DNA of 40,326 nt from a virus (IMGVR_UViG_2531839665_000018), one strand, 5' to 3'; positions 11,967-34,535 are shown, counted from the first letter of the stretch. Made by a program: numbers and translations. The notes: generated by a model from the letters alone, not told the origin.

Positions 11967-11973
11967 TATTTTT

Positions 11974-17317: not shown

Positions 17318-17362
17318 TCAACTCACGGCGGGCATCATGCCCGCCTGTAACGGAGAGAAAAA

Positions 17363-18163
17363 ATGATTACTCCTGCACAGCAACACTGGCAGAACGTGAT
17401 GGCACAGCGCGCAGGCCGGGCGAATGAAGGCGTGGACCACGCCGCGCGTACCGCGCATGAAGAGGTGCTGTATCGTCTGCGTCTGGCACAGGCCCGACTT
17501 AAGGGCGTACAGGCCAGAAGCGCGAAAGCCGCCATCAAAAAAGAGTTGTTGCCGGACTTTTCCGGCTGGATTGAGGGAACGCTGGAGGCTGACGGCGGGC
17601 AGCAGGATGAAGTGATTGCCACGCTGATGGTGTGGGCAATTGACTGCGGCGATCTTCCGCTGGCGCTGCGTATTGGTGCGTATGTGGTCCGTCACAACCT
17701 CATCATGCCGGATAACTTTGGCCGTACTGCTGCCACGGTACTGACCGAAGAAATCTGTAATCCGGTACTGACGCAGGCCGGGACGGATGCCGACGCGGAT
17801 TTGTCCGCCTTTATCGAACCACTGGACACCCTCCGGGAGATTGTCACCGACCAGGACATGCCGGACGAAGTGCGCGCCAAATTATGCAAGGCGTGCGCCT
17901 TTGCCCGTCGTGGCCTGACCGATGCGGACAGCATGGCCTCATCACTGAAGCTGCTGCGCGAAGCGATGCACCTGAACCCGAACGCAGGTGTGAAACGCGA
18001 GATTGCAACCCTTTCCCGCGCCCTGAAAAAAGCCGATTCCGCAGCCGCACCAGAAGATGCCAGCACACCGCAGGCGCAGGACGAAAGCAGCAAAAGTAAA
18101 AAGACAACGCGGAAGCCTGCAACACGAAAAACCACCGCGACGCAGAAGGCGAAGCGCGGTTAA
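17363..18163 (+). CDS. M: Terminase small/endonuclease subunit (P2 gpM family)
   Basis: 266 aa with basic C-terminal tail; synteny. Confidence 0.8.
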   Translation: MITPAQQHWQNVMAQRAGRANEGVDHAARTAHEEVLYRLRLAQARLKGVQARSAKAAIKKELLPDFSGWIEGTLEADGGQQDEVIATLMVWAIDCGDLPLALRIGAYVVRHNLIMPDNFGRTAATVLTEEICNPVLTQAGTDADADLSAFIEPLDTLREIVTDQDMPDEVRAKLCKACAFARRGLTDADSMASSLKLLREAMHLNPNAGVKREIATLSRALKKADSAAAPEDASTPQAQDESSKSKKTTRKPATRKTTATQKAKRG

Positions 18164-18255
18164 CGACTGACCCCGTCAGCGGGCGGCGTGCGCGGTGTTC
18201 CGGTTTGACTCCGTGACCGTTTACACCGCACACCCACCGCCCGATTTTTTCAGGA

Positions 18256-18759
18256 GTGAACCCCATGAGTATGGTTGCCAGAACCAACCCCGGCCCCGCA
18301 GAGGACGACATCACCGATACCGATGATGGTGATACCCGTATTTCAGCGGGCGCATTCTGGCCGGATATTGTGCTGCGTGAGCTGCGTCTGGCGATACGAC
18401 TGCCGGGCCGTGTGACCACCTCCCGCCTGCTGCATACCGCCACCGGGGCCGTGGCACACGTTACCCGCGAGCTGGAAGCGTGGCAGCAGGAACAGCAGGC
18501 GGCTGGCCATCAGACGCTGGCCGATGTTCCGGCACCCGTAATTAACGGAGAAAGCGTCAATCTCTGGCGCTGGCGTAATGCTGTTTATACCGCCACACGC
18601 GCCCTGATTCTGGAGCGTTACCGCGATGCGGACACAACGGACAAGGGCGACCGCCGGGCGGACGCACTGGATATACAGACATCGGATTTGTGGCGCGATG
18701 TGAGCTGGGCCATCTCTGACATTCTGTGCCGCCCGCGAATCTTTGCGGAGTTGTGCTGA
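18256..18759 (+). CDS. L: Head completion/stabilization protein (P2 gpL family)
   Basis: 167 aa; synteny after M. Confidence 0.8.
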   Translation: MNPMSMVARTNPGPAEDDITDTDDGDTRISAGAFWPDIVLRELRLAIRLPGRVTTSRLLHTATGAVAHVTRELEAWQQEQQAAGHQTLADVPAPVINGESVNLWRWRNAVYTATRALILERYRDADTTDKGDRRADALDIQTSDLWRDVSWAISDILCRPRIFAELC

Positions 18760-18959
18760 TGAAAGTGAAGGCACTGGAAGGCGACACCGTGGATTCGCTC
18801 TGTTTCCGGTACTACGGCACGACGCAGGGCGTCACCGAAAAGGTGCTGGATGCCAACCCCGGACTCTGTCAGCAGGTATTTCTGGACGCCGGGCAGGAAG
18901 TGGAGATGCCGGAGCCGGAGAAGAAGAAACGAGAAATGATTCAGTTGTGGGGGGAGTAG
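18759..18959 (+). CDS. X: Tail protein X (LysM-like)
   Basis: Internal ATG of track ORF 18726..18959, overlapping the L stop; 66 aa (MKVKALEGDTVDSLCFRYYG...). Confidence 0.7.
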   Translation: MKVKALEGDTVDSLCFRYYGTTQGVTEKVLDANPGLCQQVFLDAGQEVEMPEPEKKKREMIQLWGE

Positions 18960-18961
18960 CA

Positions 18962-19285
18962 GTGAGCACCATTCAAACAGGGATCACAGAGCAGGTTATT
19001 GCATGGCTCTTTGACCACCTGCCAACGGTGTATGCAGTAGGCGCGGCGGTCAGCATTTCCGCGCTGATGAGTCTTTATGACGGACGAACACTGGTTCAGA
19101 CCGTAACGGGATCGCTGGCGTGCGGCGTTCTTGCCATGGCCGTGGCCGGGTCGTTGCGCTTCTTCGGGTTTCCTGAAGATGCCGTGACGTTTATCGGCGC
19201 ATCAATCGGTTTTATGGGGGCAGAGAAAGCACGCGACAAGGTTATTGCGGCCTTTAATCGCAGGGTGAAGGAGAAGGACGAATGA
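18962..19285 (+). CDS. Putative holin
   Basis: GTG start with RBS GGGGAG immediately after the X stop; hydrophobic segments (VIAWLFDHLPTVYAVGAAVSISALM, LACGVLAMAVAGSL); immediately precedes the endolysin. Confidence 0.55.
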   Translation: MSTIQTGITEQVIAWLFDHLPTVYAVGAAVSISALMSLYDGRTLVQTVTGSLACGVLAMAVAGSLRFFGFPEDAVTFIGASIGFMGAEKARDKVIAAFNRRVKEKDE

Positions 19286-19674
19286 GCAACACATTTAAAT
19301 TCAGCAGCCGGAGCGAAAAGAATTTGCAGGGCGTAAATCCTGATCTGGTGAAAGTGACCCGACGGGCACTGGAAATCTCGGAAGTGGATTTTGGTATCAC
19401 CGAAGGGTTGCGCAGCCGTTACCGCCAGAAGCAACTTGTGGCCACAGGTAAGAGCCAGACCATGAACAGCCGCCACCTTACGGGGCATGCCGTGGATGTT
19501 GTGGCTTATGTCGGCAGCCAGGTGTCATGGGAATGGCCGCTGTACGAAAAAATCGCAGCAGCATTCAGACAGGCCAGCCGGGAGCTGAATATTCCGGTGG
19601 AATGGGGCGGCGACTGGAAGACCCTGAAAGACGGACCGCATTTTCAGTTGCCACACGGAGCCTATCCGGCATGA
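19282..19674 (+). CDS. Endolysin, peptidase M15-type (zinc D-Ala-D-Ala carboxypeptidase-like)
   Basis: SRHLTGHAVDV motif (His..Asp zinc ligands); position in the lysis cassette. Confidence 0.7.
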   Translation: MSNTFKFSSRSEKNLQGVNPDLVKVTRRALEISEVDFGITEGLRSRYRQKQLVATGKSQTMNSRHLTGHAVDVVAYVGSQVSWEWPLYEKIAAAFRQASRELNIPVEWGGDWKTLKDGPHFQLPHGAYPA

Positions 19675-20078
19675 AGCTCTGGCCCACGCTTGGCGTCGCT
19701 TTCCTTCTGATTGCCGCATGGGGAACATCCATGCGTCTGTCGTGGTCGCTGGGCAGGGAGAACGCCAGAAACGAAGCGCAGGCCAGCGCCCTGAAAAGTA
19801 CCGTCGACACCCTGAATATCATCAGCACCGGGGTACAGGATATGCAGCAGGTGCTGGCGCAACTCCGCGTGGAAAATCAACAGCGAAATCAGGACGGAGA
19901 GGCCAGACGTGAACAGCTACGCAACGATATTGCAAAAGATGAATGCGCCCACGCTTTGCCTGACGCTCGTTTTACTGACAGGCTGCGCAGGCACGCAGAA
20001 CGCGCCACGGCCAGCGCCGTCAGTCCGGCTTATACCGCAGACGCTGATCATACCGGTAACGCCTCCCCCCTTCCCTGA
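19671..20078 (+). CDS. i-spanin (Rz / LysB-like)
   Basis: Internal ATG of track ORF 19527..20078; N-terminal TM segment then charged coiled-coil-like region. Confidence 0.55.
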   Translation: MKLWPTLGVAFLLIAAWGTSMRLSWSLGRENARNEAQASALKSTVDTLNIISTGVQDMQQVLAQLRVENQQRNQDGEARREQLRNDIAKDECAHALPDARFTDRLRRHAERATASAVSPAYTADADHTGNASPLP

Positions 20079-20229
20079 CACTCCCACATGGGGAAATCTC
20101 GGTATATGGGGCGACCGCCTTCTGGATGCACTGGAAACCTGTAACGCGGATAAACGGGCCATTGAATTACTGGAACAGCGCAGGCTGCAACGACTGAACA
20201 ACGAGGATAACAACCATGCTGAAAACTGA
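19939..20229 (+). CDS. o-spanin lipoprotein (Rz1 / LysC-like), partly overlapping the i-spanin
   Basis: Signal peptide with lipobox LLTGC, proline-rich mature part; different frame from the i-spanin, as for P2 lysB/lysC. Confidence 0.55.
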   Translation: MNAPTLCLTLVLLTGCAGTQNAPRPAPSVRLIPQTLIIPVTPPPFPDTPTWGNLGIWGDRLLDALETCNADKRAIELLEQRRLQRLNNEDNNHAEN

Positions 20230-20683
20230 TTCCCTGCGTGAAGCCATGACCCGTTCATGCCGATGGTGTCAGGCCAACCCGGAAAAATTCACCATTTTCG
20301 TGGAGAGCGGCAACATTGAAACGACCGGAGAAACCCCATCGTTTGTTTACCGCTATCAGATGGTGATGTTTGTCATGGATTACGCCGGGGAGCTGGACGA
20401 CCTCACGCTGCCGCTGCTGGCGTGGTTATCCGAAAATCAGCCACAGTTGTTGCTCAACCCTGAGCGTAATCAGGACATCAAATTTTCCGCCGTTATCAAT
20501 GACGATGACAGCGCCGATCTCCTGTTTACGCTCCCCCTGCGGGAACGCGTTCGCATCACGCGCAGCAGTCAGGGCACACCGCAGGCAGAACACCTGCCGG
20601 AGCCAAAACCCCGCCTGCCATCTTCCGAAGGCGACTGGTCGCATGTATTCCAGGATGTGACGTGGGGTGAAAGCGATGGATAA
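20216..20683 (+). CDS. R: Tail completion protein (P2 gpR family)
   Basis: 155 aa; synteny. Confidence 0.75.
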   Translation: MLKTDSLREAMTRSCRWCQANPEKFTIFVESGNIETTGETPSFVYRYQMVMFVMDYAGELDDLTLPLLAWLSENQPQLLLNPERNQDIKFSAVINDDDSADLLFTLPLRERVRITRSSQGTPQAEHLPEPKPRLPSSEGDWSHVFQDVTWGESDG

Positions 20684-21311
20684 GGCATTCACCCGCGTGG
20701 ATGAAACCTTTGAGGCCATCCGCGACAGCCTGAATCAGCAGGCCATCAATAACATCGCCAGAAAGCTGGCACAGGATTTACGCCGCGCCCAGCAGGCGCG
20801 CATCCGGTCACAGAAAGCGCCGGACGGGACCGCATGGACACCACGCAGACGCCGCGTAACCCGGATACAGGAACGCATTCGCTTTATCTGGAATAACGAA
20901 GCACGCACGCTGAAAAACTGGCATCACGACACGGGGAAATACGGGCGAACCATTACCGGGTGGGATGAGGATAAAAACAATATCCGCACGTTTTACCGGG
21001 ATGACATCGACCGTTTTCTGGAAATACGCACCCGGCGCATCAACCAGGACAGCACAAAGCGCGTCCCCATGTTCGTAAAACTGCGCACCGCCCGCTACCT
21101 GAAAGCCCGTGCAGATGCTTCCGGTGTGACGGTGGGTTACAGCGGCGTGGCCGCACGTATTGCCCGCGTTCATCAGTTCGGTGAGCGCGATCAGGTTGCG
21201 CCGGGCATTTTCACCGATTACCCGGTACGTGAGCTGTTGGGCATCAGTCAGGCAGATGAACGTCTGATTTATAACACGGTGCTGGGCCGGATTGCGGAGG
21301 CTGTACGGTGA
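20676..21311 (+). CDS. S: Tail completion/virion morphogenesis protein (P2 gpS family)
   Basis: ATG at 20676 overlapping the R stop (track ORF starts at GTG 20667); synteny. Confidence 0.7.
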   Translation: MDKAFTRVDETFEAIRDSLNQQAINNIARKLAQDLRRAQQARIRSQKAPDGTAWTPRRRRVTRIQERIRFIWNNEARTLKNWHHDTGKYGRTITGWDEDKNNIRTFYRDDIDRFLEIRTRRINQDSTKRVPMFVKLRTARYLKARADASGVTVGYSGVAARIARVHQFGERDQVAPGIFTDYPVRELLGISQADERLIYNTVLGRIAEAVR

Positions 21312-21889
21312 GCGCAGAACTCATGCGACTGCTGAGCAATATCATCCGCACCGGGATCATCTCTGAAGTTGACGAGAAGTCCTGGCGCGTGCGCGTTCGC
21401 AGCGGCGAACTGGAAACAGGCTGGCTGCGCTGGAACACCACGCGCGCGGGAGCCTTCAATGTGTGGCTGCCGCCATCACCAGGCGAACAGGTGGTAATTG
21501 CCTGCATTGGCGGCAACCCGGAAACCGCCATGATAATTGGCAGCCTGTGGAGTGATGCCAGTCCGGCCCCCGGCAAAAGCCTGAAAGAAATCGTGGTCAG
21601 CGCGCCGGATGGCGCGGTGTTCCGCTACGACGCGGACGCAGGCGCACTGAGCGCCAGCGGCATGAAAACGGCCACTTTGCAGGCATCCGTCAGCGTGAAA
21701 CTGGATACGCCCGTCGTGGAATGCACAGACCTTCTGAGAACGGCGACGCTTGACGTCACAAAAGGAGGAAAGATGAGCGGCAATATCACGCACAGCGGCG
21801 GCGACTTCACCTCAAACGGCATCACAGTGCATACGCATAAACACGGTGGCGTTAAAGGTGGCAGCGATTCGACAGGAGGCCCGCAGTGA
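21308..21889 (+). CDS. V: Baseplate spike/assembly protein (P2 gpV family)
   Basis: 193 aa, Gly-rich C-terminus; synteny. Confidence 0.8.
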   Translation: MSAELMRLLSNIIRTGIISEVDEKSWRVRVRSGELETGWLRWNTTRAGAFNVWLPPSPGEQVVIACIGGNPETAMIIGSLWSDASPAPGKSLKEIVVSAPDGAVFRYDADAGALSASGMKTATLQASVSVKLDTPVVECTDLLRTATLDVTKGGKMSGNITHSGGDFTSNGITVHTHKHGGVKGGSDSTGGPQ

Positions 21890-22236
21890 CAACCCGCTAC
21901 ACAGGAATGAACCCGGACGGGACGGGAAACCTGAACGATATGGAGCACCTGAAACAGTCAGTCAGGGATATCCTGACCACCCCGCTGGCAAGCCGGGTTA
22001 TGCGACGGGAATATGGCAGCCTTGTGCCTGATTTGATTGACGAACCCATGAATAACACAACTCGTCTGCAATGCATGAGTGCTGCCGTGATTGCGCTGAC
22101 ACGATGGGAACCCCGCATTGCCCTGGACGCCATCGACGTTGTCTGGAAGGCAGGAGGCCGCGCCGGGGTGACGCTGTCGGGCACTGTCATGCAGACCATG
22201 CAGAATGTTGAATTAACCATCACGCTGAGAGAGTAA
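21886..22236 (+). CDS. W: Baseplate wedge protein (P2 gpW / gp25-like)
   Basis: 116 aa; synteny. Confidence 0.8.
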   Translation: MTTRYTGMNPDGTGNLNDMEHLKQSVRDILTTPLASRVMRREYGSLVPDLIDEPMNNTTRLQCMSAAVIALTRWEPRIALDAIDVVWKAGGRAGVTLSGTVMQTMQNVELTITLRE

Positions 22237-22239
22237 ATC

Positions 22240-23136
22240 ATGCCTGCTGTTGACCTTTCCCAGTTACCGGAACCCGCCATCATCGCGGAGCCTGATTTTG
22301 AGGCAATTCTGGCTGACACAAAGGCCATGATGATTGCGTCCTATCCTGCCGAACAGCGTGAAGCCGTCTCCGCCGCGCTGGAGCTGGAATCAGAACCCCT
22401 GAACGTTATCGCTCAAACCATGTCTTTTCGTGAAATGCTGTTACGCCAGCGGGTTAACGAGGGCGCACGCGCCTGCATGTTAAGCCACGGTTCAGGGACA
22501 AACCTGGACAACCTCGCGGGCAATATGAACACAAAGCGCCTGGTTATCACTCCGGCAACGGATACCACCGACGCGGTGATGGAGAGCGACACCTCGCTGA
22601 GATTGCGGGCGCAACGGGCGTATGACGGCCTGAGTGTTGCTGGCCCGTCAGGTGCATACGAGTATTTTGCACGCAGCGCCAGCGGTCTGGTGCGTGATGC
22701 GCGGGCCATCAGCCCGTCTCCGGCCTGTGTGACGGTTTCCATCCTGTCCACTGAAGGCGACGGCACAGCAACGGAGGCGTTGCTTAATACCGTTCGCGCC
22801 GTTCTGAATGCAGAGGATACCCGCCCGGTGGCCGACCGCCTGACCGTACAGAGCGCCAGAATCGTGACATGGCGGCTGAATGCAAAACTGTACTTTTACC
22901 CCGGCCCGGAATCCGAACCTATTCTGGCCGCGGCAGAATCGTCATTCAGGAAGTGGCTGGCTGAGCAGGGGCTTATCGGTCAGGACGTGGCGTTGTCCGC
23001 CATTGCTGCCGCACTGCATGTGCACGGTGTGCAACGCGTGGAGATAATCGAACCCACACAGAATATGGCCATCAGCGACATACAGGCGGCGCGCTGTGAG
23101 TCATTCACCATCAGCGAAGGTGGGCGCAATGAGTAA
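22240..23136 (+). CDS. J: Baseplate assembly protein (P2 gpJ family)
   Basis: 298 aa; synteny. Confidence 0.8.
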   Translation: MPAVDLSQLPEPAIIAEPDFEAILADTKAMMIASYPAEQREAVSAALELESEPLNVIAQTMSFREMLLRQRVNEGARACMLSHGSGTNLDNLAGNMNTKRLVITPATDTTDAVMESDTSLRLRAQRAYDGLSVAGPSGAYEYFARSASGLVRDARAISPSPACVTVSILSTEGDGTATEALLNTVRAVLNAEDTRPVADRLTVQSARIVTWRLNAKLYFYPGPESEPILAAAESSFRKWLAEQGLIGQDVALSAIAAALHVHGVQRVEIIEPTQNMAISDIQAARCESFTISEGGRNE

Positions 23137-23659
23137 TTCGTTGTTACCACCATCAGCCAGCAATTTCATGCGTTGTGCCGAAGCCGTCGGAACACGCATT
23201 ACAGACATTCCGGTAGACCTCAACACACTGTGGTCGCCGGATACCTGCCCGGTGCATCTGCTGCCCTATCTCGCCTGGGCATTTTCCGTTGACCGCTGGG
23301 ATCGCAACTGGCCGGAAGAGACAAAGCGACAGGTTATTCGTGATGCATGGCTGATACACCGACACAAAGGGACCATCAGCGCACTGCGCAGGGCCATTGA
23401 GCCGCTGGGATACCTCATTCGCGTGTCTGAATGGTGGGAGTTCGGCGGAGAACCGGGAACATTTACCGTTGAAGTCGGCACACTGGACAGTGGCGTGACG
23501 GAGGAAATGTATCTGGAAATGGAGCGGTTGATTGCTGATGCCCGTCCGGTCAGCCGCCACATGACAGGGCTGAATATCATTCAGGAAATTCCGGGGGATA
23601 TTTTCGCAGCGGCGGCAACTTATGACGGTGAAGTTATTACCATTTATCCGGACGATTAA
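23129..23659 (+). CDS. I: Baseplate/tail protein (P2 gpI family)
   Basis: Internal ATG of track ORF 23096..23659, overlapping the J stop; synteny. Confidence 0.75.
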   Translation: MSNSLLPPSASNFMRCAEAVGTRITDIPVDLNTLWSPDTCPVHLLPYLAWAFSVDRWDRNWPEETKRQVIRDAWLIHRHKGTISALRRAIEPLGYLIRVSEWWEFGGEPGTFTVEVGTLDSGVTEEMYLEMERLIADARPVSRHMTGLNIIQEIPGDIFAAAATYDGEVITIYPDD

Positions 23660-23661
23660 GC

Positions 23662-25764
23662 ATGAGTACCACAACACGAAAATTTAAAACCGTTATCACC
23701 GATACGGGTGCAAAAAAATTAGCTCAGGCAGCCGCGCCAGATGGTAAGCCTGTCCGCCTGACTCATATGGCCGTGGGCGACGGTGGCGGCACGTTGCCCA
23801 CACCAGACAGTAAGCAGACCCGTCTGGTGCATGAGGTGTGGCGACACACTGTTAATCGCGTCATCCTGGACGCAACACATCAGAACCGCATTATTGCGGA
23901 GCTGGTTATTCCTCCTGAAGCGGGCGGATTCTGGATCCGGGAAATTGGTGTATTTGATGAGCACGGCGATTTAATCGCGGCGGGCAATACTGCCGAAAGT
24001 TACAAGCCAACCGTTGCCGAGGGGTCCGGACGTGCACAAACATTTCGCACCATTCTAACCGTATCCAGCACTGCCAGCGTGGCGCTTACCGTGGATAACA
24101 CCATGGTGATGGCCACAGTGGATTACGTGGATGACAAACTGAAAGAGCATGAACAGTCACGACGTCACCCGGATGCCTCGCTGACCGCAAAAGGCTTTGT
24201 TCAACTCAGTAGCGCCACTAACAGCGATTCTGAAACGCTGGCCGCAACGCCGAAAGCGGTTAAGGCCGCGTATGACCTGGCTAACGGAAAATATACCGCT
24301 CAGGACGCCACGACGGCACGAAAAGGGATAGTCCAGCTCAGCAGTGCAACCAACAGCACGTCTGAAACGCTGGCAGCGACACCAAAAGCGGTTAAGGCGG
24401 TAATGGATGAAACGAACAAGAAAGCCCCATTAAACAGCCCGGCACTGACCGGAACGCCAACAACACCAACTGCACAACAGGGAACGAATAATACCCAAAT
24501 CGCAAGCACGGCTTTCGTTATGGCCGCGATTGCCGCACTTGTAGACTCTTCACCTGACGCACTGAACACGCTGAACGAGCTGGCGGCGGCGCTGGGCAAC
24601 GACCCGAATTTTGCGACCACCATGACTAACGCGCTTGCGGGTAAGCAACCGAAAGATGCCACCCTGACGGCGCTGGCCGGGCTTGCTACTGCGGCAGACA
24701 GGTTTCCGTATTTTACGGGGAATGATGTCGCCAGCCTGGCAACTCTGACAAAAGTAGGGCGGGATATTCTTGCGAAATCGACCGTTGCCGCCGTTATCGA
24801 ATACCTCGGTTTACAGGAAACGGTAAATCAGGCTTCTGGCGCATTACAGAAAAACCAGAACGGCGCAGATATTCCGGGGAAAGATACCTTCACCAAAAAT
24901 ATTGGTGCCTGCCGCGCATATAGCTCATGGCTGAATATTGGTGGCGATAGTCAGGTCTGGACAACCGCGCAATTTATTTCGTGGCTGGAGAGTCAGGGAG
25001 CATTTAACCATCCTTACTGGATGTGCAAAGGCTCATGGGCTTATGCAAATAATAAGGTCATTACAGATACAGGTTGCGGAAATATTTGTCTTGCAGGTGC
25101 TGTGGTAGAAGTTATTGGCACTCGCGGCGCAATGACCATACGCGTTACCACGCCGAGCACGTCCAGCGGTGGCGGAATTACTAACGCTCAATTCACTTAT
25201 ATTAATCATGGTGATGCTTATGCTCCTGGCTGGCGACGAGACTACAACACGAAAAATCAACAACCTGCATTTGCTTTAGGGCAAACAGGAAGCACTGTCG
25301 GAAATGATAAAGCTGTTGGCTGGAACTGGAATAGCGGGGTCTATAACGCAAACATTGGTGGCGCATCGACATTAATCCTCCACTTCAATATGAATACGGG
25401 GAGCTGCCCTGCTGTACAGTTCCGCGTGAATTACAGGAACGGCGGTATTTTTTATCGTTCAGCGCGTGATGGTTATGGATTTGAGGCTGACTGGTCAGAG
25501 TTTTACACCACGACCCGCAAACCCTCTGCGGGAGATGTTGGTGCATACACGCAGGCAGAATGTAACTCAAGGTTTATTACAGGTATTCGCCTTGGCGGTC
25601 TGTCATCTGTTCAGACATGGAATGGCCCCGGCTGGTCTGACAGGTCAGGTTATGTCGTTACGGGTTCAGTTAACGGAAACCGTGATGAATTAATTGATAC
25701 AACTCAGGCAAGGCCAATTCAGTATTGCATTAATGGAACGTGGTATAACGCGGGGAGTATTTAA
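23662..25764 (+). CDS. H: Tail fiber protein (P2 gpH family); C-terminal ~315 aa encoded inside the invertible segment
   Basis: 700 aa; tandem repeats VQLSSATNS.SETLAATPKAVKA; C-terminus ends INGTWYNAGSI, shared with the alternative C-terminus on the opposite strand. Confidence 0.85.
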   Translation: MSTTTRKFKTVITDTGAKKLAQAAAPDGKPVRLTHMAVGDGGGTLPTPDSKQTRLVHEVWRHTVNRVILDATHQNRIIAELVIPPEAGGFWIREIGVFDEHGDLIAAGNTAESYKPTVAEGSGRAQTFRTILTVSSTASVALTVDNTMVMATVDYVDDKLKEHEQSRRHPDASLTAKGFVQLSSATNSDSETLAATPKAVKAAYDLANGKYTAQDATTARKGIVQLSSATNSTSETLAATPKAVKAVMDETNKKAPLNSPALTGTPTTPTAQQGTNNTQIASTAFVMAAIAALVDSSPDALNTLNELAAALGNDPNFATTMTNALAGKQPKDATLTALAGLATAADRFPYFTGNDVASLATLTKVGRDILAKSTVAAVIEYLGLQETVNQASGALQKNQNGADIPGKDTFTKNIGACRAYSSWLNIGGDSQVWTTAQFISWLESQGAFNHPYWMCKGSWAYANNKVITDTGCGNICLAGAVVEVIGTRGAMTIRVTTPSTSSGGGITNAQFTYINHGDAYAPGWRRDYNTKNQQPAFALGQTGSTVGNDKAVGWNWNSGVYNANIGGASTLILHFNMNTGSCPAVQFRVNYRNGGIFYRSARDGYGFEADWSEFYTTTRKPSAGDVGAYTQAECNSRFITGIRLGGLSSVQTWNGPGWSDRSGYVVTGSVNGNRDELIDTTQARPIQYCINGTWYNAGSI
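24794..24819. other. Left crossover site of the invertible segment (gix/cix/hix-like, inside H)
   Basis: TTATCGAATACCTCGGTTTACAGGAA, close to the gix consensus as recalled; first part of a ~73-bp perfect inverted repeat (24803-24875 versus 28041-28113). Confidence 0.6.
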
Positions 25765-25766
25765 TT

Positions 25767-26300
25767 ATGATGCACTTAAAAAATATTACTGCTGGCAACC
25801 CTAAAACAAAAGAGCAATACCAGCTAACGAAACAATTTAACATCAAATGGCTTTATACAGAGGATGGGAAAAACTGGTATGAGGAACAAAAGAACTTTCA
25901 GCCTGATACGTTGAAAATGGTCTATGACCACAACGACGTTATTATTTGTATTGAAAAGGATGTTTCAGCAATTAATCCAGAAGGCGCAAGCGTCGTTGAG
26001 GTTCCAGATATTACAGCAAATCGCCGGGCTGATATTTCGGGTAAATGGATGTTCAAAGATGGCGTAGTGATAAAGCGAACTTATACCGAGGAGGAACAGA
26101 GGCAGCAGGCAGAGAATGAAAAGCAAAGCCTGTTGCAACTTGTCAGGGATAAAACCCAGCTATGGGACTCACAGCTACGGCTGGGCATCATTTCCGACGA
26201 GAATAAACAAAAATTAACCGAGTGGATGCTCTATGCGCAGAAAGTCGAATCCACAGACACCTCCAGCCTGCCAGTAACATTTCCCGAACAACCTGAATGA
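25767..26300 (+). CDS. G: Tail fiber assembly protein (gpG/Tfa family)
   Basis: 177 aa; N-terminal half nearly identical to the oppositely oriented copy at 26329..26856. Confidence 0.8.
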   Translation: MMHLKNITAGNPKTKEQYQLTKQFNIKWLYTEDGKNWYEEQKNFQPDTLKMVYDHNDVIICIEKDVSAINPEGASVVEVPDITANRRADISGKWMFKDGVVIKRTYTEEEQRQQAENEKQSLLQLVRDKTQLWDSQLRLGIISDENKQKLTEWMLYAQKVESTDTSSLPVTFPEQPE

Positions 26301-26328
26301 GACAAGGCCCGATAGCGGGCCTTAATTT

Positions 26329-26856
26329 TTATTCAGGCTTTTGTGGCCATTCAGGATTTGCCGTATCCACACGGCTGACCAGAACACTGTAGCGTTCCCA
26401 TGCTTCCAGTCGTGTGCGTTCCTCATCCGTTGCCATATTCAGCCTGACAGCGCGTTCCAGTGGCTGAATAACGCTTTCTGCTTCGGAAAGTAACGCGGCC
26501 TTTTGTGATTCGGCCTGTTGTTGCTGTTCATCTGCCGTATAAATCCGTTTAACCACAGCTCCGTCCTTAAACATCCACTTACCGGAATCATCGGCCCGAC
26601 GATTGGCTGTTATATCGGGGACTTCAACAACGCTAAAGCCTTCAGGATTAAGTGTGGAGGCATCTTTAGTGATGGCTACAATAATATTATTTTCATCGTA
26701 AACAATCTTTATTGTGTCTGGCTGAAAATTCTTTACCTCTTCATACCAGTTCTTCCCGTCTTCAGAGTAAAGCCAGATAACTCCGTGCTTCTTTGTTAAC
26801 TCATACTGTTCCGGTGTTTTAGCATTACCAATTTTTATGTTCTTTAAGTGGATCAT
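26329..26856 (-). CDS. Alternative tail fiber assembly protein (G'), inside the invertible segment
   Basis: 175 aa, conserved N-terminus and divergent C-terminus relative to G; opposite strand. Confidence 0.8.
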
Positions 26857-26857
26857 A

Positions 26858-28096
26858 TTAAACGCTCGCTACATTATACCATGTGCCATTTATATACTTT
26901 TGAACGGGTCTGTAATAAACACCAGCTATATTATCGGCAGAATTGGACCCTGTATCCTGAACATTTATACCAGACAATACATGACCTGAAGGGCACTGGA
27001 AGTTCCATGTTTGCCAGTTGTTCACACCATAATATTGCTGTGAGCCAAGCCGAACATCTTTCACATATCGGGAATCAATGTTATCCCAGTTGCTTGGTTG
27101 TATCTGACCGTTTACAGCAAATATCACCGAGTTATCTGTATTTCGCTGACTATAGAAATGCCAGCCTGAATCATCACCAAGCTCTGCAACAGTTGGTCTT
27201 GACGAATTTCCCCACAAGTTAAATGATGCATTACGGGCAGCGGTATTTGCACTTGAAAGTGTGAAGAACTTACTTTCCCCAGCCTGAATACCCTTTAATG
27301 ATCTTGCTGAACCATTTATAAAGCGGAATACATGCACACCATTAGCATAAGCATCCAGCACCCCATCACCATTTTGTTTAAACCCGGTATCGTTATCTCC
27401 TAAAACTATTGAATTTCCACCCAGGGCATTAGCCGTTCCAATCCCCAGATTTCCGCTAAAAATGGCATTAATACCGAATATTGAGTGAGAACAATAAAAC
27501 CCTCGCCCATTGTTAAAATCCAGAATGGCTTGTGCGTTCGTGCTTTCTGTCGCGGGATTAGTTGCTCCCCACTTATATGTTGTTTGACCGACGGTATAAT
27601 CCTGAGTTGGAACAATAACCGTTAGCCCTTCTTCAGCAGAAACCCGCACAGGAAAAGCCCTGCCTTCAACGTAAAAAACGCTGCATACATCATCTTCTTT
27701 AAGGCTTGTTACAATGGAATGGATTGCGCGCTCATTAGTCTGATATGTCGAAAAATAACCTGCCGCATATGAACCACGATCAGTCCAGCCACCAGGCATT
27801 ACCATTCCATTGAATTCGCAGTTATTCATTTCGTAATTACCATCGGCAGATGTGGTCGTTATAATCACTCTGGAAGCCAGCTCGCCAGTGCTGCCTGTGG
27901 AACGCCGGAAAATAACTGGATACCACTTTCCACCAACTGCATTAGACGGCGCATTAAATGCGTACTGCTGCATTCCTTTTTTCTTATCCACCTCGCCTTT
28001 GCTGTAAACATTAATGTTACTCAGGAAGCGATCCTTATCAGGAATATCTGCGCCGTTCTGGTTTTTCTGTAATGCGCCAGAAGCCTGATTTACCGT
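26858..28096 (-). CDS. Alternative tail-fiber C-terminal segment (promoterless; would fuse to the H N-terminus after inversion)
   Basis: Reading frame is open from the right crossover site through the track ORF 26858..27991; ends [11 protein letters not shown] like H. Confidence 0.7.
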
Positions 28097-28122
28097 TTCC
28101 TGTAAACCGAGGTTTTAGATAA
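28097..28122. other. Right crossover site of the invertible segment (gix/cix-like)
   Basis: Reverse complement reads TTATCTAAAACCTCGGTTTACAGGAA; lies just upstream of the invertase gene. Confidence 0.6.
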
Positions 28123-28158
28123 TGGCCGTTTCCGGCCTGCATGGCATGATTTGCGCTT

Positions 28159-28776
28159 TTGGACGGGAGATTCAGTGTGCTGATTGGTTATGTAAGGGTA
28201 TCAACAAATGACCAGAATACAGACCTGCAACGAAACGCTCTTGTTTGTGCAGGATGTGAACAAATATTTGAAGATAAATTAAGCGGGACAAAGACAGACC
28301 GACCGGGATTAAAACGCGCTTTAAAGCGGCTTCAAAAAGGTGACACGCTGGTTGTCTGGAAACTGGATCGCCTCGGGCGAAGCATGAAACATCTGATTTC
28401 TCTCGTCGGGGAACTACGGGAGCGAGGGATTAATTTTCGCAGTCTGACCGACAGCATAGATACATCTTCTCCAATGGGGCGTTTTTTCTTCCACGTTATG
28501 GGTGCCCTGGCTGAAATGGAACGTGAATTAATTGTTGAACGTACACTGGCCGGACTGGCGGCAGCGCGCGCACGGGGGCGCACAGGCGGACGTCGCCCGA
28601 AGCTGACAAAAGAACAGCATGAGCAAATAGCTAGGCTGATCAAAAACGGTCATGACAGGAAACAACTGGCGATCATTTACGACATCGGCATATCGACAAT
28701 TTATCGTTATCACCCTGTAGGCGATATACAGGCTGAAGAAACAACCAGGCAGACTCAGGAAAATGAAAACCGCTAA
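28159..28776 (+). CDS. Serine DNA invertase (Hin/Gin/Cin/Pin family)
   Basis: Resolvase N-terminal catalytic region GYVRVSTNDQ...DTLVVWKLDRLGRSMKHL and C-terminal HTH; adjacent to the invertible segment. The track start is a TTG; a nearby GTG (VLIGYVRVST) is the more likely start. Confidence 0.9.
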   Translation: MDGRFSVLIGYVRVSTNDQNTDLQRNALVCAGCEQIFEDKLSGTKTDRPGLKRALKRLQKGDTLVVWKLDRLGRSMKHLISLVGELRERGINFRSLTDSIDTSSPMGRFFFHVMGALAEMERELIVERTLAGLAAARARGRTGGRRPKLTKEQHEQIARLIKNGHDRKQLAIIYDIGISTIYRYHPVGDIQAEETTRQTQENENR

Positions 28777-28801
28777 TCTGACCATTAGCGGTTTTGCGTT
28801 A
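28770..28801. terminator. Candidate bidirectional terminator between invertase and U
   Basis: CCGCTAAT-N6-ATTAGCGG stem with T-runs on both strands; coordinates +/-2 bp. Confidence 0.4.
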
Positions 28802-28802
28802 A

Positions 28803-29297
28803 TCAAAACAGCCCTTTAACGGAGCTGGCCGCGCTGTTAAGGGATGATGTGACCTTATCTTTGAAGCCGGACAGCATATCACTGAACGATGAGGATTGCA
28901 GGCGCTCCCGCAAATCCTCATCACAGCGTTCAAGGGTCAGTGAAAATTCTATCTTTTTCGCCTTACCGTAGCGATCAAACTCGGAACGGGTCGTATTCGT
29001 TCCGGTCAGGACATACATGCCGTAAATCTGCCCGACGCCATCAATCAAAGGCCAGGGTCGTCCTGTATACGCCTGCGTGGTCAGCAGCGACAGCGACACT
29101 TCGCCACCTGTAATTTCAGGATAAAGCACACCAGAAAGAACGATGCGATCATCACCTGCACCGATATACTGCCAGCTTGCTGAACGGTTAACGCGTTCAT
29201 TTTTCACATGCCGCCAGCTTTTGTTTTGCTGTAACTGCTGATGCGGCAGCGTGCGCAGCTCAAAAACAAACATGCCGTAGATCATCATCATGGCCAT
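28803..29297 (-). CDS. U: Tail protein (P2 gpU family)
   Basis: 164 aa; adjacent to the tape-measure gene on the same strand. Confidence 0.8.
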   Translation of the reverse strand: MAMMMIYGMFVFELRTLPHQQLQQNKSWRHVKNERVNRSASWQYIGAGDDRIVLSGVLYPEITGGEVSLSLLTTQAYTGRPWPLIDGVGQIYGMYVLTGTNTTRSEFDRYGKAKKIEFSLTLERCDEDLRERLQSSSFSDMLSGFKDKVTSSLNSAASSVKGLF

Positions 29298-29303
29298 GAC
29301 TCC

Positions 29304-32120
29304 TCAATCTTTATCGTAAAAACTGCCACGCCCAGCACGGGCGCGCCGTTCCATTTCTGCCCTGACCATTTCACCGACCAGTTTCGCCAGTTCGCGGGGA
29401 TTCTGCGTAACAACGTTATGCAGATGAACATGAATTTCACCGCCAAATCCGGAGGCAACAGTCTCCCGGTTACGGGAAGTTGCAGGAACTGATGCCACTG
29501 GCGATCGTATGGCCTCTGCCACCGGGCGGGAGCTGGCCGCAACAACAGGGACCAGCGCCGGAGGCAGCGGAGCCGGAACCACAGGTGTGATATTAATTGC
29601 GGGGGCAGGCTTACTGACCTGCGCAATCTTCCGCTCCTGCCACTCCCCACGAACAGCAAGTGCGCGGGGCAGGTTCTTAAAGACAATATCGCCGGGGCCA
29701 ATGCGTTTTTTCGTCTCATCAACCAGCTTACCTGTGTTATCAGCAATTTTGCTGAGTCTGCGTAGCGTCCCGGTATTGCTGTCTGTGAGCGGTTTGTTGT
29801 CTTTGGGTTTATCACCTCCGGTGCCATTGCCATTTTCCACAGGCTTCGGCGGATTGATTTTCGCCAGGTCCCCCTGAAGCAAGGCAACCTTGTCCTGAAG
29901 AATGGCCGCACGCTGTGCGTCTTCGATTTTCTTGCGCGCCCTTTCCGCTTCATCCGGAAGCACACCGAGCTTTTCAAGTATCCACGCCAGCGTATCCAGC
30001 AACATTTTTGCAGGTGTCAGAACAAGTTGTAACGCACCACCAAGAACGTTACCGAATATCTCGCCAGCACTGGTACATTTATCCAGCGTTTCCTTGCTGG
30101 ACTCCATCGGTGACAGCAGCGATTTAAACCAGTTAAACACCTGGCTTATCCCGCTTCCGATTGCGTCAAAAACAGGACCAAACCGTTCAAAGGTTTCGCG
30201 CAACGGGGCCAGCCGCTCCATAATCCCACTGAACACCCCGGCAAAAAATGCCCTGATTGGGTCCCAGTATTTCCAGATAAGAATGGCAGCTCCGGCAAGC
30301 GCAGCCACGATAAGACCAACCGGACTGAACAGCGCCCCGATAGCGCCCCCCAGTAACGAAACGGAACCCGTCACCATTCCCCATAGTGCTGGCAGAACCC
30401 TGACAGCATTCATTGATCCGGTCAGGAGGGAAAAACCAAGACGCAGTTTTGCCAGCGGGCCAGCAAGCACACCAATAGCCAGCGGCAACGAGCCAACCGT
30501 TGCAGTCATTGCCAGCAGTGCACCGCCTGCAATCAGTAGCTGGCGCGTCAGTGCGGGATGGGCCTGCGCCAGCGCCGTCACCTTTGATACCACACGCGTG
30601 AGCCACTGCGTGACAGAACGCAGCGGACCGTCAATCAGATCTGCAATGCGGATGCGCAACCCTTCCCATGCACTGCTGAGTGATTTCAGATCGCCGTCAA
30701 GGTTGTTGGCCATAACCTTTGCCGTGCGTTCAGCCTCACCGCGCGCGCCTTCAAGTTCTTTTCTCAGTTTGGGTAAGGAGCCGTCACCTGCCGCATCAAC
30801 GAGGGCCATAAATGATGTGAAAGCCTCTTCTCCGGCAATGTCCTTAAAGAACGATACCCGGTCAACTTCCCCGTATTTGCGGGTAGCTTTATAAAGGTCA
30901 GCCAGCACATCCTCCATCGGGCGCATTTTGCCCCCGGCATCCGAGACAGACACGCCAAGCTCTTTCAGCGCCTCTGCTGCCGCCTTTGGCGGTGATGCCA
31001 GACGAGCCAGGCTGGCACGCATTGCCGTACCAGCATCACTCCCCGTGATACCCATATTCGCCAGCACGCCCGCCATCGCTGCGGCCTGCTCCAGCGATAT
31101 TCCCAGCTTACCCGCCACCGGACCTGCATATTTCATGGTTTCACCCAGTGCGCGAAGGTCAGTGTTGGTACGGGTAAACGCTGCGGTGAGTGTGTCGCCG
31201 ACCCGGTCCATCTGGTCAGCAGAAAGACCGAACTGCGTCAGAATATTTGAGCCAATATCCGCCGTCTCACCGAGGTCCATACCGCCAGCCGTTGCCATGC
31301 TCAGTACGCCAGGGAGCGCAGCCTGAATGGCCTGTGGTGTGAAGCCAGCCATTGCAAGAAATGCCTGCCCACTGGCGGCATCGCCTGCGGTGAACTGCGT
31401 TTCAGAGCCAAGTTTTAACGCCTGCTCACGCAGCGCCTTAAACTGCGGGCTGTTTTTGTCGATTCGCGTCAGTGCCTGAACGCGGGACATCTCTTTCCCG
31501 AACCCGATCGCAGGCTGCAAAAAACGCCCGGCAGCATAGCCGCCCGCCGCTGCCGCACCAATTGCCAGCGCACCACCTGTTTTCAGTTTTCCCGCTGTTT
31601 CCTGCGCGCGCGAATACCGCTCACGCGCCTGCGTTACACGCGCAAGCGCCTGCCGTTCGCGTTCAAGCTGGTTGTTGTACTGTTCGGTGCGTCTGATGGC
31701 CTGCTGGATGGTGTTATCGCTGCCTGTCAGGGAAATGCCGTGGCGTTTCAGCTCTCCGCCAATCTCCCGCATTTTCTGAATTTCCCGTGTGCGCGATTCA
31801 TTCAGGCGTTCAAGCCGGGTGCTTAACTGCTGCATCAGCTTTTGTTGTTTTTCGCTGAGCACTGTACCCGTGCGTTGTAACTGATTAAGGGCGTTAAGCT
31901 GGCGTCGTGCTTTCACGATACCCGCATCCGCTTTACTGACAGCGTCGCGGGCGCGCTCAAATGAACGCGCCTGACGCTCGAGATTTTTGATCGCCCCCTG
32001 CGTTCGCTGGATGGAGTCACCAAACTGCCCCATCAGGCGGCGGGCGTTTTCGGCAGGCCGGGTCAGCCTGTCAACGGCGCTGAAAGCGACCCGGATATCA
32101 AGAGTCTTCATTGTCTGCAT
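29304..32120 (-). CDS. T: Tail tape measure protein (P2 gpT family)
   Basis: About 940 aa, coiled-coil N-terminal half then Gly/Ala-rich hydrophobic segments; start taken at an internal Met (track start 32147). Confidence 0.85.
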   Translation of the reverse strand: MQTMKTLDIRVAFSAVDRLTRPAENARRLMGQFGDSIQRTQGAIKNLERQARSFERARDAVSKADAGIVKARRQLNALNQLQRTGTVLSEKQQKLMQQLSTRLERLNESRTREIQKMREIGGELKRHGISLTGSDNTIQQAIRRTEQYNNQLERERQALARVTQARERYSRAQETAGKLKTGGALAIGAAAAGGYAAGRFLQPAIGFGKEMSRVQALTRIDKNSPQFKALREQALKLGSETQFTAGDAASGQAFLAMAGFTPQAIQAALPGVLSMATAGGMDLGETADIGSNILTQFGLSADQMDRVGDTLTAAFTRTNTDLRALGETMKYAGPVAGKLGISLEQAAAMAGVLANMGITGSDAGTAMRASLARLASPPKAAAEALKELGVSVSDAGGKMRPMEDVLADLYKATRKYGEVDRVSFFKDIAGEEAFTSFMALVDAAGDGSLPKLRKELEGARGEAERTAKVMANNLDGDLKSLSSAWEGLRIRIADLIDGPLRSVTQWLTRVVSKVTALAQAHPALTRQLLIAGGALLAMTATVGSLPLAIGVLAGPLAKLRLGFSLLTGSMNAVRVLPALWGMVTGSVSLLGGAIGALFSPVGLIVAALAGAAILIWKYWDPIRAFFAGVFSGIMERLAPLRETFERFGPVFDAIGSGISQVFNWFKSLLSPMESSKETLDKCTSAGEIFGNVLGGALQLVLTPAKMLLDTLAWILEKLGVLPDEAERARKKIEDAQRAAILQDKVALLQGDLAKINPPKPVENGNGTGGDKPKDNKPLTDSNTGTLRRLSKIADNTGKLVDETKKRIGPGDIVFKNLPRALAVRGEWQERKIAQVSKPAPAINITPVVPAPLPPALVPVVAASSRPVAEAIRSPVASVPATSRNRETVASGFGGEIHVHLHNVVTQNPRELAKLVGEMVRAEMERRARAGRGSFYDKD

Positions 32121-32627
32121 TCCCGCTGCGAAGTGCCGCCCGCTCACGCCAGCTAACCACTTCGCCGGGCGTCATCATGAAGATTTCGGCGGGCGACCAG
32201 TTAAAAATAACGGCAATATCTGCCACAAAGTCTTCTATGTGCTCAAAGCACACAACCGTGATCAGGCTTCCGTCGCCTGTTCGTTCTTCCCGCCAGAGTC
32301 CGCACCGCTCAAAAAATTTACGGCAACCACACATAACTGAATAAAGTCACGGGATGCCATTTTTTTGATCGTCACTTCATCCAGTCGCGGTGATGTCACG
32401 CGTGACAGCAGCGTAAACATGGATTCCGCTTTCAGATTCAGCACATCAGACAGCGACAAATCTCGCAGAGATCCAGCCTGCTCAATAGCCCCGGTGATCT
32501 CCACATACGTGATTTTTTCGCCGCCTCGCTCAATTGGTTGGGTAAGTTTTACGCCACGCTCACTGGTTTCTTTCACAGTGTCAGCAACTACCGTGTTTTC
32601 GGTATCGATGTTTTTCGTCTCTTTCAT
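32098..32627 (-). CDS. Tail assembly chaperone E+E' made by programmed -1 frameshift (slippery T_TTT_TTG at 32310-32316, minus strand)
   Basis: E frame reads AAT TTT TTG (..VNFL..); the -1 frame continues as FFERCG..., which is the track ORF 32098..32334. Frames checked codon by codon. Confidence 0.6.
32262..32627 (-). CDS. E: Tail assembly chaperone (P2 gpE family)
   Basis: ORF between the tube gene and tape measure, containing the slippery heptamer near its 3' end. Confidence 0.75.
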   Translation of the reverse strand: MKETKNIDTENTVVADTVKETSERGVKLTQPIERGGEKITYVEITGAIEQAGSLRDLSLSDVLNLKAESMFTLLSRVTSPRLDEVTIKKMASRDFIQLCVVAVNFLSGADSGGKNEQATEA

Positions 32628-32681
32628 CAGGAAACTCCTTTCAGTCAGAGGCGACGCACTGCGCCGCCTGCATATTACTTA

Positions 32682-33194
32682 TCAGCCAAGCCCAAGCGCG
32701 GAACGGATGCGATCGGGCACAATGTCCTTGCCGTCCTTCCGGTAAATGAAGTTCAGCAGGTCAATCTCCCACAGCGGGCGATCGTTAACGCTCAGCTTGT
32801 AGTAGGTGTTTTTAATGGCGTAAGAGTGTGATGTGGCTTCGCCCTGTTTGGCTTCCCCCATATCAATTTCCGTCACACGTCCGCGCATTTCGACTTCATA
32901 CAGGTCGCTTTCTGCATCGGTGTAGTATTCACCCGCAAAACGCAGCAGCGTGCCGTCAATCGTGCCGCCATACTTAAGGAACAGCTCACGAACTGCGCCC
33001 CCCATGACAAAGCTCGCATCAAGCGCGGAGTCGTCCAGACCGAGATCAATACTTACCGCACCCATCATGCCACCACCCCGGTAGCTGTCGGTTTTGCGCG
33101 TCAGCTTAGGCAGAGTGACGGACGTCACCTTACCCACTTCGTTTTCACCATCCACAAACAGCGTAAAAAAGCGAAGATGTTTTGGCACAGCCAT
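32682..33194 (-). CDS. FII: Major tail tube protein (P2 gpFII family)
   Basis: 170 aa; immediately downstream of the sheath gene on the same strand. Confidence 0.85.
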   Translation of the reverse strand: MAVPKHLRFFTLFVDGENEVGKVTSVTLPKLTRKTDSYRGGGMMGAVSIDLGLDDSALDASFVMGGAVRELFLKYGGTIDGTLLRFAGEYYTDAESDLYEVEMRGRVTEIDMGEAKQGEATSHSYAIKNTYYKLSVNDRPLWEIDLLNFIYRKDGKDIVPDRIRSALGLG

Positions 33195-34378: not shown

Positions 34379-34535
34379 AGCTTCAGCCCCTTGTATCCGT
34401 TAAATGATTCGGCAACAATCATCACCCACCACGCGCGCAATCTCACCCCTGCGCCATTCTCCCGCCACGGCGACAACAAAAAGCAGTAACCCCCTCCGCA
34501 CGCACATGCGACCATGCCGCACAGGGAGGGAACAG

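Follow-up and report, generated by a model that had tools for sequence, protein, structure and literature searches.

Sequence evidence for a Gin/gix-type invertible tail-fibre segment in a P88-like Escherichia coli prophage

Background

The textbook switch of tail-fibre ends by DNA inversion is the Gin/gix system of the transposable phage Mu. Its G segment is bounded by 26-bp gix sites and has the layout Sc / Sv-U / U'-S'v; the invertase gene, gin, is directed away from the segment and carries the recombinational enhancer sis within its first 90 nt. The C segment of P1 and P7 (Cin, cix) is similar in that a Fis-dependent serine invertase switches S/U tail-fibre genes, and the enhancer is at nt 19–86 of the invertase gene. 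The arrangement in P7 is different from that of the locus described here, however, as cin is directed toward the segment, with its 3' end adjacent to cixL, and the enhancer is approximately 0.5 kb from the site. The inverted repeats of P1 are 0.6 kb.

Hin/hix of Salmonella and Pin with the P segment of e14 are also Fis/enhancer-dependent invertases that act at 26-bp sites, and Gin, Cin, Pin and Hin are interchangeable. Hin, whose gene is inside its own segment, inverts a promoter and not coding cassettes, and e14 is a lambdoid remnant. The R64 shufflon (Rci) and p15B Min likewise rely on DNA inversion to exchange the C-termini of a fibre or adhesin, but R64 employs a tyrosine recombinase that acts at numerous sfx sites and there are six sites in Min, compared with a serine invertase and two sites here.

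In cultures, Goldberg et al. (2014, PMC4272514) measured tail-fibre segment inversion for P2-like prophages of E. coli, and long reads have confirmed inversion in Mu-type fibres (PMC9881135). The paper describing phage P88 makes no mention of inversion (PMC5285337), and no discussion of an invertible segment was found in the Xuanwuvirus literature.

The sequence analyzed here (IMGVR_UViG_2531839665_000018) is a stretch of 40,326 nt, referred to as the window. Its gene set is of the P2 type and complete. The window matches E. coli 4.0967, and over positions 19662–29764 there is 100% identity with a deposited E. coli assembly. We assign the element to the P88-like (Xuanwuvirus, P2-family) prophages of E. 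coli. A preliminary description of the window, made without database searches, proposed an invertible tail-fibre segment of the Gin/Cin type at positions 24794–28122. The analysis confirms what was observed there and supports its interpretation: the region is very probably a Gin/gix-type, Fis/enhancer-dependent invertible segment that is homologous to the Mu G segment. The switch is of a known kind and is a near copy of the Mu system; it is real, intact and ordinary.

Results and discussion

Crossover sites and inverted repeats

The 40-kb window was searched with the Mu gix 26-mer, TTCCTGTAAACCGAGGTTTTGGATAA, allowing up to three mismatches, and 100 shuffles served as the control. This 26-mer was verified against the Mu record AF083977, in which each boundary of the G segment carries it with 0 mismatches. 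Exactly two gix-type matches are present, where the shuffles give an expectation of 0. The left site, at positions 24794–24819 on the minus strand, has 2 mismatches to Mu gix and is within the fibre reading frame; the right site, at positions 28097–28122 on the plus strand, has 1 mismatch. Sites resembling gix or cix had previously been placed at these same positions, and comparison with the verified Mu sequence bears this out. Between the two outer half-sites there are 2 differences, which is a departure from the Mu G segment. The central dinucleotides are TC (24806–24807) and GA (28109–28110). These are mutually reverse complementary and the sites are therefore compatible with inversion; a pair of inverted crossover sites whose centres match is characteristic of the Gin/Cin/Hin/Pin family. 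Relaxing the search to 8 mismatches revealed no third gix-like site within the segment or close to it. A multi-state system similar to a shufflon was rejected, since there are only two gix-like sites at this threshold and the recombinase is of the serine type.

A perfect inverted repeat of 73 bp has its left arm at positions 24803–24875 and its right arm at positions 28041–28113; the perfect repeat in Mu is 34 bp. An extended repeat of 102 nt (24790–24891 and 28025–28126) shows 91% identity between the arms. The 73-bp perfect repeat was correctly reported in the preliminary description, but the repeat is not simply bounded by the sites as stated there: the 26-bp sites overlap its outer ends and reach 9 bp past the perfect part.

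Tail-fibre gene and assembly chaperones

The constant part of the tail-fibre gene, equivalent to Sc, is at positions 23662–24806 (plus strand) and ends at the crossover point. It has a P2 gpH-type N-terminus, in contrast to the Mu S type in the G segment, with the Pfam domain Phage_tail_fib (PF12571) and two Phage_fiber_2 repeats. Variable C-terminus A, at positions 24877–25764 (plus strand), is of the Mu S'v (G(-)) type and is the end expressed in the present orientation. Homology of the present fibre to Mu S' starts only at aa 379, which corresponds to nt 24796, and from there fibre aa 379–700 show 98.4% identity to Mu S' aa 167–488. At the DNA level, positions 24791–26920 are 92.7% identical to Mu, a similarity of 93% that extends over S'v-U'-U, and identity to P1/P7 is 94% over approximately 2 kb of fibre and chaperone DNA.

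Variable C-terminus B, at positions 26858–28040 (minus strand), is silent and is without its own start. It is a mosaic P2 gpH-like receptor-binding end in place of Mu Sv, and has no DNA match to Mu. It shows 57% identity with fibres of the P2-like phages 9W and P22H4, and 62% with P2 gpH over its C-terminal half. When the segment is flipped in silico, end B fuses in frame with the constant part; the fibre gene stays open and the protein changes from 700 aa to 798 aa, with a common prefix of 405 aa. The two alternative fibre C-termini that had been proposed for the segment are thus both present. They are alignable only over the last 76 residues, with 36% identity, and the proteins end in ...YCINGTWYNAGSI and in a second 13-letter ending.

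Each variable end is followed by a tail-fibre assembly chaperone gene with the Pfam domain Caudo_TAP. Chaperone A (25767–26300, plus strand) is of the Mu U' type, with 98.9% identity to Mu U', and is expressed in the present orientation; chaperone B (26329–26856, minus strand) is of the Mu U type, with 91.4% identity to Mu U, and is silent. Identity between the two is 57% overall, with the first ~120 residues conserved and the rest divergent, in agreement with the conserved N-termini and divergent C-termini noted earlier. The layout is that of a switch of the Mu G-segment type: the constant part is outside and, inside, a variable end with its chaperone occurs twice in convergent arrangement. 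A GC-rich hairpin is found between the convergent chaperone genes (positions 26304–26323), where the terminator-like sequence AAGGCCCGATAGCGGGCCTT is followed by AATTTTTATT. It is a match to the consensus only, and it is likely to represent a terminator that insulates the silent half. Searches of the fibre, chaperone and cargo genes with NCBIfam and PADLOC gave nothing useful.

Invertase and putative recombinational enhancer

The invertase gene, at positions 28177–28776 (plus strand), is transcribed away from the segment, as in Mu, and encodes a serine DNA invertase of 199 aa that is orthologous to Gin. It is a small serine recombinase with a catalytic N-terminus and a C-terminal helix-turn-helix (Pfam Resolvase, 1.2e-50, and HTH_7), and it matches the Gin structures 4M6F and 3UJ3 with E values of ~1e-101. 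The protein shows 82% identity to Mu Gin overall, and in the catalytic domain 118 of 119 positions agree. Most of the differences are found after residue 120, and conservation is clearly lower in the C-terminal DNA-binding domain; recognition of the sites by this divergent domain is supposed from the interchangeability of Gin, Cin, Pin and Hin. Over the repeat and the first 390 nt of gin the DNA is 91% identical to Mu. The exact protein is encoded on 663 public contigs.

Ser9 is intact (in VRVSTNDQ), and His106 and Met114 are wild type. In Gin, S9 is the nucleophile and the M114V change leads to Fis independence (PMC3575834). A mutated catalytic serine, which the preliminary description regarded as an outcome that would speak against the switch, is therefore not present in this Gin orthologue. 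Residues Q150, R153, L154, K46, R47 and K50 align with Hin residues that make invertase-specific contacts with Fis and the enhancer (PMC3798978), and these contact residues are conserved.

The start codon is most likely the GTG at 28177. It is homologous to the gin start in Mu, is preceded by GGGAG at 28165–28169 and is the RefSeq start in relatives. This start is 54 bp from the right site and not about 40 bp, as had been given earlier; the shorter distance fits only an upstream in-frame TTG at 28159. A scan for a sigma-70 promoter between the right site and the invertase gene found no convincing one, and inspection of hexamers around 28095–28123 revealed only weak matches. By its likeness to gin, which is weakly expressed, the invertase is assumed to be expressed, and the flipping rate of the segment is one that we infer.

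A putative recombinational enhancer is located inside the invertase gene at positions 28195–28262. With the annotation of the P7 GenBank record as the reference, this stretch corresponds to nt 19–86 of P7 cin and, as in Mu, is within the first 90 nt of the gene; it is 100% identical to Mu gin. Two Fis-type 15-mers (28199–28213 and 28247–28261) have centres that are 48 bp apart, and the distance to the crossover centre is ~97 bp, compared with about 100 bp for Hin (PMC3798978). The degenerate Fis consensus has six matches in the 527 nt scanned and is not discriminating, so that the assignment relies on position, the 48-bp spacing and the identity to Mu. The enhancer that the preliminary description proposed to look for in the 5' region of the invertase gene thus appears to be present, and inversion is predicted to be Fis dependent.

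Proposed working of the switch

The constant fibre N-terminus (23662 to ~24806) would be read from the late tail operon, outside the segment, and the two alternative receptor-binding C-termini, each followed by its own chaperone, would lie head to head within it. Invertase dimers are expected to bind both 26-bp sites and may then form a synapse at the enhancer, which is within the first 90 nt of the invertase gene and would be occupied by Fis. Ser9 would cut at the central TC/GA dinucleotide, and a rotation of 180 degrees would invert the 3.3 kb of DNA. The present orientation is predicted to produce the 700-aa fibre with a Mu S'-type end together with the U'-type chaperone; the flipped orientation would produce the 798-aa fibre with the P2 gpH-like end and the U-type chaperone. 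We propose that with two fibre states, one lysogen population may give rise to virions of two adsorption specificities. Host range would probably differ between the orientations, as end A is nearly identical to Mu S'/U' and end B is unrelated.

Orientation in other genomes

The P88-like phages P88, 520873, 503458 and phiSM and the P2-like prophages of EPEC E2348/69 share the genome architecture and crossover sites of the window. The common order is V-W-J-I-H, invertible segment and invertase; the U-T-E-FII-FI block is encoded by the other strand. In P88 the segment is inverted relative to that of the window, and the silent cassette varies between members. One EPEC prophage is different in that it has three repeats and four states, compared with two sites and two states here.

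The closest complete genome is TW10590, which shows 99.9% identity to the flipped query. A blastn comparison of the two displays a strand switch at 24790–28126 with breakpoints within the repeats. The O145 strains RM9467-C1 and RM9872 are near-clonal; their flanks are 100% identical and the 3337 bp between them are inverted, with no other difference. Complete E. coli genomes carry the present orientation in 35 cases and the flipped one in 39. The exact present fibre is found on 6 public contigs and the exact flipped fibre on 5, both with the A107 allele of the window itself. The segment is thus not limited to a single orientation, a restriction that according to the preliminary description would contradict the switch: TW10590 is flipped, the O145 pair is inverted, and both fusion proteins are present in assemblies. 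Together these comparisons indicate, indirectly, that inversion occurs in nature. Partial fibre proteins and contig breaks were rejected as evidence of a mixed population, since an inverted repeat longer than the k-mer also breaks contigs of a uniform population.

The switch could be intact but silent in its host, with the invertase unexpressed or the prophage never induced, so that orientation is frozen and there is no phenotype. The lack of a clear invertase promoter is consistent with this. However, the invertase is identical at 200 of 200 translated positions (199 residues and the stop) to that of TW10590 and of the O145 pair, whose members differ by the inversion, and the A107 allele is fused to both ends in public assemblies. 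The P2-type gene set is also complete and the relative P88 is inducible (PMC5285337), and we consider a silent switch very unlikely.

Still less probable is that the differences in orientation are produced by RecA-dependent homologous recombination between the 73–102-bp repeats and not by the invertase. A crossover anywhere in the 73-bp perfect repeat is scarless and the exchange point is not locatable by sequence comparison, which is compatible with this route, but the near 1:1 split of orientations and the difference between near-clonal isolates point to frequent site-specific inversion. In addition, an intact Gin orthologue, gix cores and an enhancer adjoin the repeats, and relatives such as phage 520873 keep the 26-bp sites despite much shorter perfect repeats.

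The least credible explanation, to which we give almost no weight, is an assembly artefact in which the repeats let assemblers set the interior either way: short-read contigs do break at the repeat, and one (L013) ends exactly where the perfect repeat does, at 28113, but the records compared are complete chromosomes, a repeat of 73–102 bp is spanned by single long reads and most paired reads, and assemblers that see both orientations would in itself imply a mixed population.

Inversion by the invertase remains the favoured reading, and as inversion in P2-like prophages was measured earlier, the value of the locus is mostly one of annotation. Gene callers label the silent fibre end as a hypothetical protein or tail fiber protein that is not linked to the constant part, and short-read assemblies break at the 73-bp repeat. 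When host range is predicted for P88-like phages, as also in the published work on P88, two fibre states should be allowed for.

Possible exchange of receptor-binding cassettes

The boundaries of the cassettes coincide with the crossover sites, and Mu homology sets in at nt 24796, where the left site has its outer edge. The invertase itself might exchange receptor-binding cassettes among co-resident Mu-like, P1-like and P2-like elements, although we regard this as unlikely. The gix sites would then serve as portable docking points, and the exchange would not be due to homologous recombination across the conserved repeats. This proposal has been made before, in older work on how tail fibres evolve, and is only partly new. 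In one relative (L010), replacement of the silent cassette extends from 28082, within the right repeat, inward to 27078, while the active fibre remains 100% identical.

Crossover sites and inverted repeat

The 26-bp crossover site of the phage Mu G segment (gix), TTCCTGTAAACCGAGGTTTTGGATAA, as used in the preliminary description, is a genuine Mu sequence, present with 0 mismatches at both annotated G-segment boundaries (AF083977). With up to 3 mismatches allowed, it has exactly two matches in the window and 0 in 100 dinucleotide-preserving shuffles of it. The left site (24794–24819, minus strand) has 2 mismatches to Mu gix and the right site (28097–28122, plus strand) has 1, which upholds the earlier assignment to the gix type. 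No third gix-like site is present in or near the segment at up to 8 mismatches. The two sites are mutually inverted. On the plus strand their central dinucleotides read TC and GA, which are reverse complements of each other, a precondition for inversion. A perfect inverted repeat of 73 bp is found at positions 24803–24875 and 28041–28113 and extends to 102 nt with 91% identity. The length first described for this repeat is correct, but the sites do not simply bound it; they overlap its outer ends.

Tail-fibre gene, variable ends and chaperones

By Pfam, the tail-fibre ORF (23662–25764, 700 aa) has an N-terminus of the P2 gpH type (PF12571) and contains two fibre repeats, and Caudo_TAP is found in both of the small chaperone genes. 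When the sequence is inverted in silico from one site centre to the other, the reading frame is maintained and a 405-aa prefix is joined to the minus-strand ORF, giving a 798-aa fibre in place of the 700-aa one; the segment thus holds two alternative fibre C-termini, as had been proposed. The expressed half (24877–26300, plus strand) represents the Mu G(-) set: fibre residues 379–700 share 98.4% identity with Mu S', and the chaperone shares 98.9% with Mu U'. In the silent half (26329–28040, minus strand) the chaperone has 91.4% identity with Mu U, and a search for a DNA match to the silent fibre end in Mu gave none. This end is a mosaic with 57% identity to the fibres of P2-like phages 9W and P22H4, and its C-terminal half is 62% identical to P2 gpH. 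Likeness between the two fibre ends is limited to the last 76 residues (36%), and one end terminates in ...INGTWYNAGSI. The chaperone genes are 57% identical, with about 120 residues conserved and the remainder divergent, in keeping with the conserved N-termini and divergent C-termini reported earlier. A GC-rich hairpin (26304–26323) between these convergent genes looks like a terminator.

The constant part of the fibre gene also has a 96-nt direct repeat (24171–24266 and 24303–24398; 75% identical, 132 nt apart), which corresponds to two Phage_fiber_2 repeats. Within the constant region, resemblance to Mu S is confined to these repeats (70% and 62% over 40 aa).

Both orientations in public genomes

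Flipping was assessed from public genomes. Complete E. coli genomes were searched with positions 23600–28800, as in the window and flipped, a single piece covering 80% or more being required for the as-is version. The as-is version is present in 35 genomes, the best 97.9% identical, and the flipped version in 39, among them TW10590 with 99.9% full-length identity; the segment is therefore not confined to a single orientation. In a blastn comparison with the TW10590 prophage, the collinear flanks stop at 24875 and restart at 28041, and 24790–28126 aligns to the opposite strand with 99.8% identity. Thus the closest complete relative shows exactly the inversion that was predicted. O145 strains RM9467-C1 and RM9872 have flanks of 4276 bp and 3760 bp that are 100% identical, and the intervening 3337 bp are inverted. 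Opposite orientations are also found between 95JB1 and 95NR1, GF8/GF75 and GF161, and 2020N21-110-15 and 2020N21-110, pairs whose kinship was judged from names and near-identical map positions. Among public E. coli assemblies, the exact 700-aa fibre is on 6 contigs and the exact 798-aa flipped fibre on 5, and both carry the A107 allele, which sets the prophage of the window apart from those of TW10590 and the O145 strains. These genomes all encode one and the same invertase protein, which is found without a change on 663 contigs.

Genomes KSC9 (NZ_CP018323.1), WS1933D and MSI001 each have at least two related prophage copies with oppositely oriented segments, those in KSC9 being at 4839981–4844947 (as-is) and 17360–22326 (flipped). 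Assembly breaks at the switch are common. A short-read contig (GCA_048937185.1 JBDIUR010000092.1) ends at window position 28113, the final base of the 73-bp repeat, and many "partial" fibre proteins on record are 357–405 aa, the prefix common to both fibres being 405 aa.

Invertase and enhancer

The invertase (199 aa; Pfam Resolvase and HTH_7) is 82% identical to Mu Gin, with E values of about 1e-101 to Gin crystal-structure chains. Residues 1–119 show a single difference, K39 for R39. Ser9, a change of which abolishes the activity of Gin (PMC3575834), is present; the catalytic serine is not mutated and the invertase is intact, as a working switch demands. Met114 and His106 are wild type, so the enzyme would be expected to be Fis-dependent; Gin M114V is Fis-independent (PMC3575834). 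In Hin, Q151, R154, L155 and basic residues 47, 48 and 51 are invertase-specific Fis/enhancer contacts (McLean et al., PMC3798978). Their counterparts here are Q150, R153, L154, K46, R47 and K50, the one-residue offset following from alignment to the Hin DNA-binding-domain chain.

The enhancer of cin is annotated at nt 19–86 of the gene in the P7 GenBank record. The corresponding invertase stretch, 28195–28262, is 100% identical to Mu gin and represents a candidate enhancer in the 5' region, where one had been anticipated. By sequence match it contains two Fis-type 15-mers (28199–28213 and 28247–28261) with centres 48 bp apart, the proximal one about 97 bp from the crossover centre; the enhancer-site distance in Hin is about 100 bp (PMC3798978). 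The start codon is most likely GTG 28177: it corresponds by homology to that of Mu gin, has GGGAG (28165–28169) ahead of it and is the RefSeq start in relatives. This places the start 54 bp past the right site; the distance of about 40 bp given previously fits only the in-frame TTG 28159. No convincing candidate for the invertase promoter was found.

DNA identity to Mu gin falls sharply past about nt 390 of the gene (28565–28776), and the DNA-binding-domain motif is GISTIYRYHP in place of ALSTLYKKHP in Gin. From this drop, the invertase seems to be a mosaic in which a Gin catalytic domain is joined to a different DNA-binding domain.

Comparison with known systems

A shufflon or Min-type system is ruled out because there are two sites and a serine recombinase. 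The system is that of the Mu G segment, here serving a P2-type fibre. Departures from Mu are found in the constant fibre part, in one of the two variable ends, in the length of the perfect repeat (73 bp versus 34 bp in Mu), in the outer half-sites, which differ from each other at two positions, and in the diverged DNA-binding domain of the invertase. As in Mu, but unlike in P7, transcription of the invertase gene leads away from the segment. In phage P88 the segment lies the other way round. Goldberg et al. (2014, PMC4272514) measured the inversion of tail-fibre segments of P2-like E. coli prophages as cultures grew, and Milman et al. (2023, PMC9881135) obtained long-read confirmation of inversion for a prophage fibre with homology to the variable fibre of Mu. 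We consider it very probable that the segment is a functional Gin/gix-type host-range switch, with the receptor specificities and activity in the strain of the window being predicted. Both the system and its textbook mechanism are known already; what is mildly new is only that the cassette boundaries fall at the crossover sites.

Homology to Mu starts at nt 24796. A contig with a related prophage (GCA_025637705.1 DAJNNK010000021.1, 7197–8872) shares the exact 700-aa active fibre and both crossover sites, with the silent cassette swapped (window equivalent 27078–28082). It carries another silent fibre end (320 aa, with a Gp34_trimer match) and another invertase protein, of 195 aa. Two processes would fit this pattern: homologous recombination anchored on the repeats, or exchange of cassettes between co-resident phages by the invertase.

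Prophage context

A nearly complete prophage of the P2 family makes up the window, and positions 19662–29764 are 100% identical to contig AFAA02000027.1 (GCA_000194495.2); the source name of the exact fibre protein is E. coli 4.0967. The gene order is integrase, repressor and cox, followed by replication, portal/terminase, capsid, lysis and tail genes, with an FI-FII-E-T-U block on the opposite strand and then gpD and ogr. P2-type baseplate genes J and I are upstream of the fibre gene, and gpU is downstream on the other strand. The P88-like phages P88, 520873 and 503458 (Xuanwuvirus, Peduoviridae) share this architecture and have the segment and invertase in the same place.

In canonical P2, the tail block, the baseplate and fibre genes and gpD are all on one strand. 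Here the U-T-E-FII-FI block (28803–34378, minus strand) runs opposite to the plus-strand stretch 34404–35645 and to the baseplate genes, fibre genes and gpD, and the invertase adjoins one of its boundaries. A link between the invertase and an old rearrangement of the block is unsupported, because the other boundary showed no gix-like site.

The prophage also differs from its TW10590 relative in other stretches. Positions 35655–36943 have no counterpart in that otherwise 99% identical prophage and include a 340-aa ORF (35766–36788, minus strand) in the cargo slot between gpD and ogr. This ORF has only a weak, sub-threshold HEPN (RiboL-PSP) match and could be an accessory or defence gene. In the early region, 5073–6179 is missing from the relative and holds an ORF for an SPFH/Band 7 family protein (5284–6114, plus strand). 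The variable stretch 11075–12003, between ParM-like/partition genes (10057–11332) and the portal gene, does not align to TW10590, where other hypothetical genes are present; such plasmid-type segregation genes are notable in a P2-family prophage.
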